A stretch of 63,986 bases of DNA, counting the filler, from Dimargaris cristalligena (lineage: Eukaryota), in NCBI GenBank assembly GCA_003614675.1. It is 9 parts of 9 records of this genome, joined end to end, with 100 filler letters (N's around TTAATTAATTAA, not from the genome) between each part and the next. Parts side by side here need not be neighbours in the genome. Positions count along the whole stretch, not along the records: positions 21,743 to 28,884 come from ML003450.1; 8 more parts are not named here. One strand, written 5' to 3'. Both the position numbers and the translations under genes were made by a program. Numbering within the stretch: position 1 is the stretch's first letter; every line of letters begins with the position of its first letter. A model generated the notes under the pieces. It was not told where the DNA came from. It did no database searches and was given only the letters and a program-made list of their open reading frames with translations. Below are positions 21,340-28,479 of this stretch, in pieces.

Positions 21340-22019
21340 ATACCTTTGATGGGCTTATATATTACCTTATTTATAATATAACTTTTACAGTTCAGTAGCT
21401 ATTGCATAGATACCAGATCTATATTAGTGTAGTAAACTTACTACATTTTTACCTAACTTTACTTTTTACCTATTTTTTACACTTGTAAAGAACTGAACTC
21501 AAATCCTTAAAAACTAAACTTTATTTAAAAAGATAGATAATAAAAGGGAAAGGTGATAATAGACTTGCTGATCCAAAAGGTGGCAGCAAGGGGGAGTATT
21601 TATACTCGAAAGAGGAAGCCTAAATGAAAAGATAGATGAATANNNNNNNNNNNNNNNNNNNNNNNNNNNNNNNNNNNNNNNNNNNNTTAATTAATTAANN
21701 NNNNNNNNNNNNNNNNNNNNNNNNNNNNNNNNNNNNNNNNNNTAATTTATAAAGTTTATTTTATATTTTTTTTTATTTTTAATATATTATTATTAGTCGT
21801 TTTCCCATTAAACTAACCCGACCTTTCCATTTTCTTACCTTTCTTTTATTTTACTTTTTTTTTCTTTCACTTTCTTCTATTTGTAACTACCGCCTTAAGG
21901 CGATAGCCCAGAATACTCCACGTATGTGGTGTGTGGTCGACCCAGGAGGAGGGATTTTGTAATCAGGGGGGAACTAATAAAAATCAACGAAAGATTGATT
22001 CTCCTATATATATTACTTT

Positions 22020-22075
22020 CCCCAACCTAAAGGTTGGGGTCCTCCCTCTTCTAAAAGAGGATGTCCTTATGAAGG
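22020..22075. repeat. Mitochondrial double-hairpin-element-like GC-rich structure
   Basis: Adjacent hairpins CCCCAACCT-AA-AGGTTGGGG and CCTCTT-CTAA-AAGAGG, plus CCTT-ATG-AAGG. Confidence 0.5.
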
Positions 22076-22208
22076 TATGTAGTGAGGAATCAAGGGTAAA
22101 GGGAAAATCTTTGATTCCTAGAACAGAAATTCCCCGGAGGGGGGGGGGAAGGGGGAGGGAAGGGAGTTTGAAGGGATTTTTCGGGTGAGGAAGAATTGAA
22201 CTTCCACA

Positions 22209-23075
22209 TTATGATCCCAATTCATAAATTCTACCTATTAAATTATCACCCGAAAAAGAAAAGGGGAGGGGGGAATTATGATTCTGAATAGGTCCTAAGA
22301 AAAATACGATCCAGATGAAAAGAAGTATTAATTTAGAATCTAATTCAAATAAAATAAAGAAGATTAAAAAGATAAAACTAATAACAATATATAATAAATA
22401 ATGAGGAACATAACCAGTATCTAAAGAAGTAACTTTTTTTGAAAAAAAAAATAAAGTATATGTAATTCCAGAAGGACCAATAAGTTCAATAATACCTTTA
22501 TCTAACGTCTTAAATGAGATGAAACCAAAATTAAGTAATCCACCTACGGTAGCAGTAGAAATTCTATCAAAGTACCACTTATTACTTAAAAATTTATAAA
22601 AATTACGACTAAATTTATTAAATAAAAAATAAGCATCAAAAAGAACATTAATTGAATATTGATAAAAAAAATAAGCAGAAATAATACCAAAAATAGTTCC
22701 AAACATAGGTAATAATTTAAAAAAAACTGGTAATCCAAATTCAGTATCTACTAATACGGAGTGTTGTGGATGTATAAATAAACTATTACCCCAAAATGAA
22801 GAACCTAAACCAATAAATAAGTCTTTAAAAATATAACCAAAAAATATACTAAATAATGCTAATATAATTAAAGGAAATGACATAATAAAAGATGGTTCAT
22901 GAATTAATTCATAAATTTTTTTTTGTCCATTTGGTCTACCAAAAAAAGTTAAAAATAATAATCTAGAAGAATAAAAAGCTGTTAAAAGAGCTGTAAAAGT
23001 ACCAAAAAAAAAAGCAATAGAACCATGAAAAATAAAAGTACTACCAGCTAATTCAATAATTAAATCTTTAGAATA
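22209..23075 (-). CDS. nad5: Mitochondrial NADH dehydrogenase subunit 5, C-terminal portion only (288 codons from YSKD)
   Basis: YSKDLIIELAG...TAFYSSRLLFLTF...HEP...PLIILALFSIFFGY...KWYFD...KTLDKGIIELIGPSG; in-frame TAA at 23087-23085 just upstream. Confidence 0.95.
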   Translation of the reverse strand, partial: YSKDLIIELAGSTFIFHGSIAFFFGTFTALLTAFYSSRLLFLTFFGRPNGQKKIYELIHEPSFIMSFPLIILALFSIFFGYIFKDLFIGLGSSFWGNSLFIHPQHSVLVDTEFGLPVFFKLLPMFGTIFGIISAYFFYQYSINVLFDAYFLFNKFSRNFYKFLSNKWYFDRISTATVGGLLNFGFISFKTLDKGIIELIGPSGITYTLFFFSKKVTSLDTGYVPHYLLYIVISFIFLIFFILFELDSKLILLFIWIVFFLGPIQNHNSPLPFSFSGDNLIGRIYELGS

Positions 23076-23113
23076 AATTAAAATTTAAATAAAAATAATT
23101 TCTTTCGCCTCGT

Positions 23114-23182
23114 TGGTTGGTTTGTGAGATTTGAACTCACTTAAACGAGTAAATAACTCGCATTGATTTAACCCATAATCAA
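23114..23182 (-). pseudogene. tRNA-like element or degenerate tRNA
   Basis: Perfect T arm GTGAG-TTCAAAT-CTCAC, stem-loop GCGAG-TTATTTA-CTCGT, imperfect acceptor TTGATTA/AAACCAA, weak D arm. Confidence 0.45.
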
Positions 23183-23543
23183 AAACCTTTTCTTATTCTG
23201 ATGCTGAATTCACAATTTTACTAAACTTTATAAATGCGAAAGTCCAAAATAGTTTAATATTATTATATAAAACTCATTATTTATTTTATTTTATTATATT
23301 AAATCAAAAAGGGATTCAGATTCATACTGAATCTTAAGTTTCACACTAATTAGTGCTATTTATTACGCACATCACGTAAAAATAATTGAATATTGTACAT
23401 CTAAATATAATAAGAGAAACGTGTTCTACATATTTAACAATCCAGTTTCAGAATTACTGAGACATCAATAAAATAAATTAATGTAAAATATATAATAAAA
23501 GTTCATTAAATAAAAAATACTATACTAATAAAAAAAAGTATTA

Positions 23544-24460
23544 TTAAATTTTATAAAGCATTAAAGGATACATATAAAAAAGAACTATTGATCATAATAA
23601 AAACATTAAATTAACTCAAATATATATTCTAGGGCTTCCAGAACTATGAAATCTCAAAGTACAATTTAATCTATATCTAATAATAAAAATATTAATAAAT
23701 ATAACTACCTCTTCAACCTTATAAGAATAAGTACAAAGAATTAAACCATTATCATCTTTCATACCATCGTCCATAATCCAATGAATTAAAATAAGTAGTG
23801 TAAGTAAATTATAGATATCAAAAGGTATAATTTTAACACAATTAACATAAAATAAAATATGAAGTTAAGTAAAACAAGATAAAGAACGAATACTTAGATC
23901 AAACCCATATGTTGGTTTTTCAAAAAGATATTTAGTTATAAATTGAGGATAAGAAGAATAATAAAGGGAAAGAATTAAAAAGACATACCAAAGATATTCA
24001 AAATGGGCAAGTGACTGAGTAAATCATAATCTTGCATTTTTATTTTTAAAACTTAAGATTTGGATTCATGCATCACTTAAAATTAATCCAACAACAACCC
24101 TCAGAATATATGGAGGTAATTGGATTAAAGATTTAATTTTGAGAGAGAATTTACCTAATCCAACCGAAGAACCTAAAGAACCATAAGATCCCCAAAGGAC
24201 TAATATTGTACAATTAACCTTGGGTTGAAGCTCACTAAAGTGAATGTAAGAAGATTTTTTTTTATAAAAAAAAATTTTTTCTGATTCAAATGGGGTAACA
24301 GAGAAGAAAAAATTTTTATAAAACTGATAAAAAAAATTGCTCTCTGAATAGTTACTCTAGACACCCCTAATGCTTTACTACATTCAACAAAAAAAGAAAA
24401 TTGAAAAAAATTACCAGTTTTAGTATAAACAAAAACTTTAATACGACGTTTTGTAGTTAA
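23544..24460 (-). pseudogene. Homing endonuclease pseudogene: NUMOD1 plus double-motif LAGLIDADG (I-SceI type)
   Basis: KVFVYTK...ECSKALGVSRVTIQRAI (NUMOD1), VVGLILSDA and LIHWIMDDG motifs, ending MLYKI*; four TGA and one TAA in frame. Confidence 0.85.
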
Positions 24461-24732
24461 AGTTTAAAATGTAATGAACCAAAGATTAAAATTGAAAGTA
24501 AATAATGGTTTAGGAATTTAAAAAAAAGGAAAAGAATTTTTAATATAATTTATAGTAATCATAATTTAAATAAATAATCAGTAATACTAGCTCATTAATA
24601 TAAATACAAGGCCTATAAATAGATAATAATATTTTAAATGAAAACATTTTTTTTAATTCAAGCTCACTCTAAAAAAATATATAAAAAACTAATTAAAAAT
24701 AGAATTTAAAAAAGAGGGAGGGGGGGGAATTT

Positions 24733-26285
24733 AGAAAGGAGAAAATAATTCAGCGACAGTTTCCACTACCGCTACTGGTTACGACTTCGATCAAGTTATG
24801 AATGAATAATCATTAAAGTATAATTAAAAAAAAACACATTATGAAAAGACTTAAGTAACATGAAATTCATGGCTTAAGACCCTCACTGCAAAGCAGTTCG
24901 TGATAATGAGAATAAATTAACAATAACTTTAATTTCTTGCATCATTCATTTCCCGACCGTGACGGGCGATTAGTACATCTTCCAGATAAAATTTCACCGT
25001 AGCATTGTGATCTACGATTACTAGCAATTCCAACTTCAGGAACCCGAGTTTCAGAGTTCCATTAGTACAAAGTTGAATTTAAAGATTAACTTAGATTTAC
25101 ACCTTTGTATCTTTTTGTATCAACTAATGTGGCACGTCTGTAGCCCAATTCATTAGGGTCATGAGGACTTGTCTTAGTCCCTAAAACACCAATTTATAAT
25201 TGATGACGTATAGAATAATATAACAATACGTAGGGGTTTTGTTCGTTAGCGGACTTAACCTAAAATTTCACAACAAGAACTGAGGACAGCCATGCAACGC
25301 CTGTAAATAAAAAAATTTATTCAAGAATTGGTAAGATTATTTGGGGATCATCAAATTAAACAACATGCTTCACTGCTGGTATGAAAGACCGTCTATTCTT
25401 TTGGGTTTTAATCTTGCGATCGTACTTCCCAGGTGGAGTGTGAACCCCCATAGGGGATTTACAAAGTAAATCATTTACACTCATAGTTTAGGGTGTGGAC
25501 TACAAGGGTATCTAATCCTTTTTGCTACCCACACTTTCGTATCTTAGCGTCAGTAATTGAAAAAAAAATTCAATTCAGAAAGAAGCCTTCGCATTTGGAG
25601 TTCCTTCAAATATCTTTAGATATCATCCTTCCATTTGAAATTCCTCTTTCTTGTATATTACTCTAGTCTTGTAACCAACGAATAATTTATCCAGATATTA
25701 TATACCTGTTCATTTATTCTTTAAATAAAGACCGCCTACATACCCTTTACACCCATTAAAGATGAATGACGCTTATCCTTCTCGTATTACCGCGACTGCT
25801 GGCACGAAATTAGTCAGGATTAATAGAAAAGTAATGTCATTATCTTCCTTTTCTTTAGAGTTATATAACATTTTGCCTTCTCACTCTTCTATTTAGCTGG
25901 ATCAACCTTTCGGTCATTGTCCAAGATTCCTCACTGCTGACCAAGTACAAAAGACTGGTATGGCCATTCTTTCATGACCATTGTGGCCGATCATTCTCTC
26001 AAACCGGCTATAGATTATTGGCTACGTAAGCCATTACCTTACGCATAACCTAATCTAATGTAAGCACATCCATAGGCGGAATTAATAATATGAAACCAAA
26101 ACTTTGTTCCGGCTTTTTTATAATCCTTTTTTTTTTATAAGCTATTTTATAACTTTCCTATGGGTTGCATTCTTACTTATCCTCACCCGTTCGCCATGAA
26201 GGATTATTTACCTCATTCGACTTGCATGTGTAAAGCTAATAGAAAGCGTCCACTCGGAGCCAAGATTAAACTCTTATAATAAAAA
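24733..26285 (-). rRNA. rns: Mitochondrial small-subunit rRNA
   Basis: AGAGTTTAATCTTGGCTC at the 5' end, GTGCCAGCAGTCGCGGTAATAC, ATTAGATACCC, AAGTCGTAAC and the terminal GGAA helix; ends approximate. Confidence 0.97.
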
Positions 26286-27088
26286 ATTAAAAAAAAGTTT
26301 TTAACTTTAAATAATTAAATTTTATTTTCAATCTCATAATAAACGATATTATCGTTTTTTTTTATTAACATTTTAAAATACTTATAAAATATTTAAAAAT
26401 TCATACTAAAGCGTTATATTAAAATTTTTTTCATTTAATTTCTAGCTTATAGCGTTAAATTTGATATTTTAAAAAATACATTAAAAATATGTTTTAATTT
26501 AATTTATATTCAAATTTTTTTTTAATATAAAGTAATAAAAATTAACGTTTTATTAAATAAAAATTATTAAAATAATTTTCACAAAGTAAATAAATAAACA
26601 TAAAATAAACACATCTTTAATATAATATCTATAAAACATCTAAAGATGTGAACTTATAAATTTTTTTATTTATAAAACTTAAATAACTTATCAAACATCA
26701 GCAAATTTTAATATTTAGGCTGAACCTTTATAAAAGATTTAAAAAATTGATAAATATATAATTAAGGTTCTCAACTTTTAGATACTAGATAGCTTTTTCA
26801 TTTTAACTCTTATCTTATAAGAGTGAAACTTTATAATATTTTTCACAAAATTTCCACATCTAGCCTATCAAACCAATAATCTATTGGTTGTTTATAAGGA
26901 ATAGTTTATAATTAGGTTTCCTACTTTAGATGCTTTCAGTAGTTATCCTGTCCTAACGTGGCTTTTCTGCCATGCTTTTTAAGAAAACAACAGATAAACT
27001 ATAGGTTAGTACAATTCATTCCTCTCGTACAAGAATCATCTATTATTCCTATTCCTATTCCATTAGTAGATAGGGTCCGTACTGACTT

Positions 27089-28479
27089 CAAATATACCTC
27101 ACCTTTACAGGTAGGTTTGGACTTTATCTTTTTATAATTACATAAAGCCTCTGAGAAATACATTTTAAAAATATATTGTATTCCTGCTAATTACCGGATA
27201 AAAAAATTTAATCACAAGTATTTAAGCATAGAGTAATTTTACGACGCCAGTCAAATACGGAATATCTATAATGGGAGCCCTTAAAGAGCTTCGTTTAACG
27301 AGGGATTATAAAGCAGAAAGATAAGAGGGGGAAGAATAACGAAAAAAAAAAAATTAATTAATTTTATTTCTGCTAAATAATAAGTTATTAAAAGGAATAT
27401 TATGCTTTAAACAACGACCCATCGTAGTCTTAGAGACATTATATTTATTACGAGCATCAATAACTCGATCCAATTTTTCAATAAATTCTAAAGATTTAGC
27501 ATTATAAATCCATACTTCTGTATTTTTAGATTTTTTTACAGAAGGATTAACAATAGAAACAGGTGACCATTTTTTTTGTAATTCAATGGTTAATGAAGAT
27601 TTAAAAAATAAATATTTATTTTTATAAAGTTGACCAGAATTAAGATGAGCTTGAAGATCTGCGAGATAAATATTCAATTGACGAGCTGTTTCTTTAATAC
27701 CTAAAATTATTAATTCAGAACCAATGACAATTTTATTGTTTTCAACAGTATAAACATATACTATCGAACTTTTAGCTTGTCGTTGATCTTCTGAAATAGG
27801 TCCTCTTGAAGGACTACCAACAACTAAACTTCTATTATATGTAGGAATTAAAAGCATCCAAAATTGCTCACGACTTTTTAAAAAATTTAAATCAAAAGGC
27901 TCTTCACAGATTTCAAGGATAATAAGATTCCAATATTGTTTAGAATATTGCAACATATCAGAAGCTACATCCATACTAACTTTAAAACTAGAAAGTTCTT
28001 TATTTAATCGACTTGATTGATAATAATCAACTAATCGACTATCTTTACCACCTGAAAAATTTTTAGCAGAACCGATATAAAATTTACCAGTTTTTTTACA
28101 CCACCATAAATAAATACCTCCAATATTCTTCAATTCTTTACGTAATAATTTTTCATTTAAATCACAATTTTTATAAATTTTGAATATTGGTTTTAAATTA
28201 TATTGATTAATTAAAGTATTTATTCGGTTAATTAAAATATCAAAAGAAATAGGAAATTTAATTCTATTGCTAATCGGAAATAATTGATAAATTTTAGAAC
28301 TATTTTTAGGAATATATTGAGTTACTAAAGCTGTAATTTCATTTTTGTTAAAATTCATTATAATAAATGAAAAATATAATATAGAGGAAACTAAAAACAC
28401 TCTATTGAATGTCTAGTAATAAAAATATAAATAAAAATTTATATAGAATTGAGATTAAGTAAATAATTAAAATATATAG
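27089..28479 (-). mobile_element. Group I intron in rnl at the position equivalent to E. coli L2596
   Basis: 5' exon ends GACGT, intron ends G, 3' exon starts AAGTCAG. Core elements P ATGCTTAAA, Q ATTAGCAGG, R CTCAGAGGCTTTA, S AAGATAAAGTCC. Confidence 0.9.
27354..28358 (-). CDS. Intron-encoded GIY-YIG homing endonuclease with NUMOD1-like C-terminus
   Basis: GGIYLWWCKKTGKFYIGSA...RL..Y...REQFW...YN; ORF intact, first ATG at 28358. Confidence 0.92.
   Translation of the reverse strand: MNFNKNEITALVTQYIPKNSSKIYQLFPISNRIKFPISFDILINRINTLINQYNLKPIFKIYKNCDLNEKLLRKELKNIGGIYLWWCKKTGKFYIGSAKNFSGGKDSRLVDYYQSSRLNKELSSFKVSMDVASDMLQYSKQYWNLIILEICEEPFDLNFLKSREQFWMLLIPTYNRSLVVGSPSRGPISEDQRQAKSSIVYVYTVENNKIVIGSELIILGIKETARQLNIYLADLQAHLNSGQLYKNKYLFFKSSLTIELQKKWSPVSIVNPSVKKSKNTEVWIYNAKSLEFIEKLDRVIDARNKYNVSKTTMGRCLKHNIPFNNLLFSRNKIN

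Follow-up and report, generated by a model that had tools for sequence, protein, structure and literature searches.

A detached 3' half of mitochondrial nad5 in a Dimargaris cristalligena assembly is probably a recent truncated copy beside an intact gene

Is a mitochondrial nad5 that starts abruptly inside a conserved motif, behind ribosomal RNA genes, one part of a gene expressed in pieces or a partial copy of a gene that is whole elsewhere? The locus lies in a window (the whole stretch of DNA analysed, 63,986 nucleotides with filler) from the D. cristalligena assembly GCA_003614675.1, and the first-pass annotation offered four options for it: unusual trans-splicing, a giant intron containing rRNA genes, a two-piece Nad5 or a recent displaced duplicate. 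The window is concatenated from contigs of about 7.1 kb, with paired 44-N runs every ~7.2 kb, and the context of the nad5 fragment therefore stops at 21743 and 28884, the ends of contig C1243 (Table 1). The minus strand of this contig carries part of rnl with a GIY-YIG intron, rns, a broken LAGLIDADG_2 gene, a tRNA-like cloverleaf, the nad5 3' half and trnP, so that all the same-strand upstream elements named at the outset (tRNA-like element, dead endonuclease gene, rns and rnl) were recovered.

The minus-strand frame is open from 23084 to 22209 and similarity to nad5 sets in at YSKD (23075), three codons past an in-frame TAA, as first described; Pfam NADH5_C matches the fragment with an E value of 1.5e-19. 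The frame runs open for 288 codons from the Tyr at 23075, compared to 134 codons for the longest open stretch in 2000 shuffles. The count of 288 intact codons thus stands for the open frame, but a 45-nt overlap places the last 15 of them in trnP, and about 273 codons are nad5 proper. Directly before YSKD the in-frame codons read ATT-TTA-ATT, and the fragment runs for 64 codons before its first ATG, at 22883. GF stands before YSKD in 117 of 120 homologs, and the protein is uninterrupted across GF/YSKD in the closest relative, P0001 (76% identical), as well as in P0249. Decay of the fragment found no support in a relative-rate test (23 versus 13 changes, not significant, p 0.13); the fragment retains 69 of the 79 columns that are conserved in at least 90% of 119 homologs, versus 70 of 79 for P0001.

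Table 1. Coordinates of features on and around the nad5 fragment, counted along the window.
Feature	Position	Strand	Remarks
Mitochondrial contig G000:C1243	21743..28884	no strand	7,142 bp between N spacers
Exact overlap with the end of C1319 (nad5 exons 1-2)	21743..21797	+	55 nt, opposite gene orientation
5' half of tRNA-Thr(TGT), cut in anticodon stem (window form)	21792..21822	-	by eye
Segment common to the alternative DNA forms: nad5 3' half, trnP, 5' half of trnT	21792..23077	-	at least 1,286 bp, as suggested by contig tables
tRNA-Pro (TGG)	22180..22253	-	
nad5 3' half, Tyr390 onward (Umbelopsis numbering)	22209..23075	-	open frame, similarity; last 15 codons and stop inside trnP
Graph branch node	23048..23077	no strand	X6 contig end 23077, X7 start 23048, X13 relative end 23077
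Degenerate tRNA-like cloverleaf	23119..23187	-	5-bp acceptor stem, no clear anticodon
Broken free-standing LAGLIDADG_2 endonuclease gene	23544..24356	-	domain match; 1 TAA and 4 TGA
rns	24738..26281	-	
rnl intron with open 352-codon GIY-YIG frame (27354-28412)	27085..28479	-	X6 and X13 joints skip to 28480

The assembly contains two mitogenomes, one on contigs C182 and C55 and a second on C1243, C1319, C1020 and C2106, of which these four contigs have been found so far (25,531 bp in total). The C182/C55 mitogenome reads TGA as Trp and has its own complete nad5, with cob exons on both sides of it, while the second uses the standard code, with zero in-frame TGA in the nad5 exons read. The C182 nad5 was rejected as the missing partner of the fragment, given its 33% identity, its other code and 4 mismatches in the 30 letters of the branch node described below. 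The genes nad1, cob, nad2, nad4 and the 5' part of cox1 of the second mitogenome are absent from the assembly, which was cut at 2,000 bp (the last contig is exactly 2,000 bp long); with so many genes missing and such a cut-off, the absence of a piece is weak evidence. The best named identities of the second mitogenome are to Umbelopsis (nad5 half, 49%; a cox1 exon, 62%), and in a 30-row tree the fragment forms a 100/100 clade with P0001 and P0249, the deeper forks being open. Its owner may be a host or a contaminant. A search for related loci returned a single distant locus at 39% in a metagenome scan, none in viral contigs and, in GTDB, prokaryote-genome matches at the level of nuoL only (best segments 38-52%, among the best 80 of 558 matches). 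The worry that the locus is a nuclear copy (NUMT) was not borne out: the would-be nuclear flanks are other contigs, the ends of C1243 overlap a mitochondrial contig and the frames are open. Since the neighbouring parts of the window are unrelated contigs, a NUMT is not indicated.

The first-pass annotation saw no nad5 5' half upstream of the fragment; exons 1 and 2 are present in the assembly on C1319, off the window contig. There, exon 1 (417 nt, ending in VG) is followed by an intron, exon 2 (293 nt) and a second intron, which carries what we take to be group I core motifs. Exon 2 is identical to P0001 at 89 of 97 residues, tying C1319 and C1243 to one lineage; P0121 and P0122 read into the same second intron and P0241 and P0124 pass the site in frame. 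The first-pass annotation asked whether the 5' half ends at TG(F); exon 2 ends instead in the Met237 codon at nt 710. The middle part that is missing starts at nt 711, includes the first base of Phe389 as its last and measures 455 nt. This middle exon had no match in the assembly when the other mitogenome's exon served as query, and residues 111-259 of P0001 were unmatched in the second mitogenome.

Other sequencing runs bear on whether the 3' half occurs in more than one DNA context. Contigs of 4 of the 22 listed public runs were aligned to the window (X6 and X7 are presumed to be DNA, and X16 is RNA), and in two of the four a contig ends exactly at 23077/23078, with a chance of about 0.002 per run that a listed contig ends at any particular base. 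In X6, a 1,310-nt contig spans 21768-23077 from end to end with 0 differences at a depth of 53.4. In X7, a contig of depth 1029 runs from 23048 to 24283 and so extends 30 letters to the nad5 side, one below the bridging threshold. Other contig pairs likewise overlap by 30 letters (24254-24283 in X7 and 26683-26712 in X6), as expected for assembly with 31-letter words. A contig of a relative in X13 (1,819 nt, 94% identical over 22268-23077, with 49 differences in 810 nt) also stops aligning at 23077, leaving 741 unaligned letters upstream; the distance from the start of exon 2 (Trp140) to the break would be 748 nt versus these 741 letters, which is a weak hint only. The RNA run X16 covered only rRNA, with no cover on nad5, and the RNA runs have word shares of 0.10-0.13.

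The 30-letter node in which these contigs end is unique in the assembly, and in a graph test with k=31 the window contig alone yielded no branch node, the node arising only with a second molecule that shares the sequence downstream from 23077. We tried four boundaries (23075-23078), one of which reproduced the node, and this boundary, 23077, is the one predicted for an intact gene, in which TTT (Phe) would stand against the ATT of the window with two letters in common. The C182 nad5, differing at 4 of the 30 node letters, cannot produce the branch. As splicing creates no branch in DNA, the simplest reading is that one 3' half exists in two DNA contexts, one of them the intact gene. The branch thereby points to a contiguous nad5 elsewhere, the finding that the first-pass annotation had held to speak against a split gene; such a gene can be inferred for the second mitogenome, and the complete C182 nad5 is that of a different one. 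Read depth is less uniform: in X6 the listed contigs from 23753-28473 have a depth of 5-8, with 7.8 in the two bins next to the junction on its upstream side, whereas in X7 the listed pieces of the shared segment have 700-900 versus 1029 for the contig of window form. For a repeat present 1:1, the shared segment would be expected to reach roughly twice the depth of that contig. The shared segment is thus about eightfold in excess in X6 with no excess evident in X7, in terms of contig depth, which is no measure of copy number. This mismatch could come from uneven amplification of two distant loci or from shifting isoform ratios.

The junction reads TTAAT/TTAT and, as originally described, there is no terminal G before the exon; the AT that precedes the exon is compatible with a group II intron end. 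The suggestion of a group II AY end holds as far as this AT is concerned, but the group II domain V motif was not found within 2 mismatches and no Rfam group II match was found at E values up to 10 (a search that had no group II positive control). Among eight group I and group II motifs, 6 were unmatched at up to 2 mismatches in 23078-24737 and the other 2 matched only at 2, the group I R and S motifs having no match within 2 mismatches in the same interval. Each of three control introns showed two or three motifs at 0-1 mismatch, three of the eight motifs having been written after reading one control intron. Rfam intron families gave no hit upstream of the junction, but missed the two C1319 control introns as well.

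Between the junction and rns lie two degenerate elements. The cloverleaf folds with a z of -2.87, 0 of 200 shuffles being as stable, and is called by neither ARAGORN nor Rfam. The LAGLIDADG_2 gene, with five stops in its frame under code 11, is situated about 470 nt upstream of the nad5 fragment on the same strand, with the pseudo-tRNA between them.

At the other end of the contig, the overlap with C1319 had initially hinted that the nad5 halves lie on opposite strands; the join cuts tRNA-Thr, and X7 shows another form. The loose end in X7 completes the tRNA-Thr anticodon arm and the start of the T arm (by eye) and has 0 matches in the assembly, while X6 has the window form. The join at 21792 is inverted with 6 nt of microhomology. 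Its appearance is that of an inversion chimera or of a second recombination, and it is no proof of the gene layout; if formed within one molecule, it would put the end of C1319 near the 3' half, as in an intact gene. In multiple displacement amplification, more than 85% of chimeras are inverted, with 2-21 nt of complementarity (PMC1855051), and the sample-specific join at 21792 fits this description, unlike the 23077 junction, which recurs in a separate sample.

We consider it probable (about 0.7) that the nad5 fragment is a recent truncated duplicate, or a recombined copy, lying behind rns beside an intact, cis-spliced nad5. The working gene would consist of exon 1, a group I intron after nt 417, exon 2, a group I intron after nt 710, and the middle and 3' part. 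A recent mitochondrial DNA rearrangement in the second fungus of the assembly would have given rise to the truncated second copy, through a break inside the Phe389 codon. The 3' half, taking trnP and half or more of trnT along with it, would thereby have become attached to the AT-rich spacer that follows rns, the dead endonuclease gene and the pseudo-tRNA. The copy would either mark the border of a repeat no shorter than 1.3 kb or belong to one of two genome isoforms that coexist, and we propose that its frame stays open and conserved because its sequence has not yet diverged at all from that of the working gene. The second branch of the graph would correspond to the nad5 middle exon, which was presumably dropped as a contig of less than 2 kb or left uncovered, and the orphan copy probably makes no needed protein. 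Of the four options, the displaced duplicate therefore has the best fit, although the classical endonuclease route is probably not how it arose, while trans-splicing, a giant intron and a two-piece Nad5 all predict no DNA branch.

Even taken jointly, trans-splicing and a two-piece protein are unlikely. Joining of a discontinuous nad5 at the RNA level, be it by trans-splicing or by removal of a giant intron that holds the rRNA genes, would account for the open and conserved frame, the AT at the junction, the seeming dominance of the window form in X7 and the absence of the middle exon from the assembly; the cob exons on both sides of nad5 in the other mitogenome, and the trans-spliced group I introns in cox1 and rns of Gigaspora (PMC7315562), also speak for it. 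Yet two presumed DNA runs break at the same base where this explanation predicts no branch, the terminal G is lacking, 6 of the 8 intron motifs went unmatched upstream of the junction (a weak test, Rfam having missed the controls) and the relatives are continuous at GF/YSKD, so that we regard it as improbable. That the 3' half is translated on its own, with ATT or TTA as start codon and from an RNA freed at the pseudo-tRNA, is more doubtful still, hardly to be expected: ATT-TTA-ATT does precede YSKD in frame and a stable cloverleaf lies 40 nt upstream, but the first ATG comes late, the break splits a nearly invariant motif and the DNA branch is left unexplained. Also unlikely is that the fungus maintains two mitochondrial isoforms, with the nad5 3' half belonging to the intact gene in one and to the rns transcription unit in the other. 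In samples dominated by the split form (X7, to judge by its depths), transcripts of the rRNA unit might then supply the 3' half, which would be freed at the pseudo-tRNA and put to use through intron-less RNA joining or as a separate polypeptide.

That the junction is an amplification or assembly chimera absent from cells is just as improbable as RNA-level joining. In its favour, the assembly is fragmented, its contigs overlap by 55 nt and depth varies; close by, the join at 21792 resembles amplification chimeras (PMC1855051) in its inversion, its microhomology and the cut through trnT, and X7 has another form there. But the window form, starting in the node and with its 30 letters on the nad5 side, is found at high depth in X7, a separate sample that is not flagged as a possible source and differs from the window at 24491, 24720 and 27075. 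Base-exact recurrence in separate samples makes a chimera unlikely. We give a little less credence to endonuclease-driven 3' replacement, by which a LAGLIDADG element would have inserted at GF/YSKD together with a foreign 3' half and displaced the resident one, as documented for atp6, atp9, cox2 and nad3 in Glomus, Allomyces, Rhizopus and Mortierella (PMC3630166). The dead LAGLIDADG gene on the same strand is in keeping with this model, but rns rather than a completed nad5 lies upstream of it and the pseudo-tRNA intervenes. The model also expects differing 3' halves (64-81% identity, PMC3630166), whereas the branches in X6 merge with 0 differences, and no second 3' half of the second-mitogenome lineage is found in the (incomplete) assembly.

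Several known systems resemble the locus in part, as far as the accessible text of the cited papers describes them. Fungal mitogenomes harbour truncated copies of atp9, atp6, nad2 and nad3, and partial duplicates of atp6 and cox1 beside free LAGLIDADG genes in Pyronema and Phlebia (PMC7315562, PMC7487136); as at our locus, part of a core gene recurs there at high similarity close to a free-standing endonuclease gene, but here 0.87 kb of nad5 and tRNA genes lie behind rns and a pseudo-tRNA, outside introns, and the intact copy is deduced from a graph branch. C-terminal duplications brought by mobile ORFs, as for atp6 in Allomyces and for atp6, atp9, cox2 and nad3 in Glomus sp. DAOM-229456 (PMC3630166), likewise have, downstream of a LAGLIDADG gene, a 3' gene part that looks intact; they differ in that here no completed gene lies upstream of the endonuclease gene and the two copies seem to be the same sequence instead of a foreign one and a resident one. 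Trans-spliced group I introns, known from Gigaspora cox1 and rns, Isoetes and Trichoplax (PMC7315562, PMC8393795), also leave gene pieces at separate places, but in those systems the breaks are flanked by intron halves, a terminal G is present and the DNA does not branch; here neither of the first two was found and a branch is present. A partial nad5 at the border of an oomycete inverted repeat was considered for comparison and set aside, as the available text of PMC5093560 has the whole nad5 inside the repeat. Literature listings, drawn mostly from openly accessible papers, showed no trans-spliced or two-piece fungal Nad5 and no published rearrangement of a nad5 3' half behind rns.

If the fragment is a duplicate, the event is an ordinary rearrangement, and the locus illustrates that an orphan exon which is open and conserved can look like trans-splicing when a short-read assembly omits contigs below 2 kb, the contig ends of other runs being what discriminates. 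The locus also flags a second mitogenome, without a close named relative, inside the assembly. If instead the split form is used, nad5 of this fungus would be a trans-joined or two-piece fungal Nad5, a gene caught splitting.

In X6, a public sequencing run, depth stood at 53 over positions 21768-23077 and at 5-8 over the remainder of the mitochondrial contig C1243, while the pieces of the other mitogenome in the same run lay at 37-57, near the value of this segment. The depth of the segment may be coincidental, or it may reflect biased amplification or a sub-molecule that was itself amplified. The second mitogenome, comprising C1243, C1319, C1020 and C2106, has relatives in public collections at 76-97% protein identity. 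Comparison of run contigs with the window at the tRNA-Thr(TGT) site, where an inverted join to C1319 interrupts the anticodon stem, revealed the cut form in X6 and the completing sequence in X7.

Features of the second mitogenome (window positions, or locus coordinates where a handle is given) and of the other mitogenome
Position	Feature	Observation
21792-21822	tRNA-Thr(TGT)	anticodon stem interrupted
22209-22270	nad5 3' end and trnP	minus strand
23119-23189	cloverleaf	loop TTATTTA, no clear anticodon
23544-24356	endonuclease gene	broken frame
near 24710-24729	C-rich run	after rns; resembles run at nad5 3' end
27354-28412	GIY-YIG frame	open, 352 codons; within rnl intron
L011:4941-5430	5' of nad5 exon 1	degenerate AT-rich repeats, period ~196-199 nt
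L022:1411-2010	AT-rich contig C2106	two short open frames
G000:C182:19710-25238	nad5 region of other mitogenome	flanked on either side by cob exons

TGA accounts for four of the five stops in the broken endonuclease gene, and reading it under table 4 leaves one TAA as the sole stop; since only this TAA remains, the gene may originate from a donor in which TGA encodes Trp. X6 and X13 contain contigs from other organisms, and these lack the rnl intron that harbours the GIY-YIG frame.

The cloverleaf upstream of the nad5 half is mismatched at its first two acceptor pairs, and in this it resembles the tRNAs of chytrids that undergo 5' editing. Acceptor mismatches of this kind are absent from trnP. 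No nad5 stop precedes trnP, and the nad5 frame instead crosses a C-rich run to terminate 45 nt within the tRNA. Processing of the tRNA would yield a nad5 mRNA that lacks a stop codon, unless the stop is supplied otherwise.
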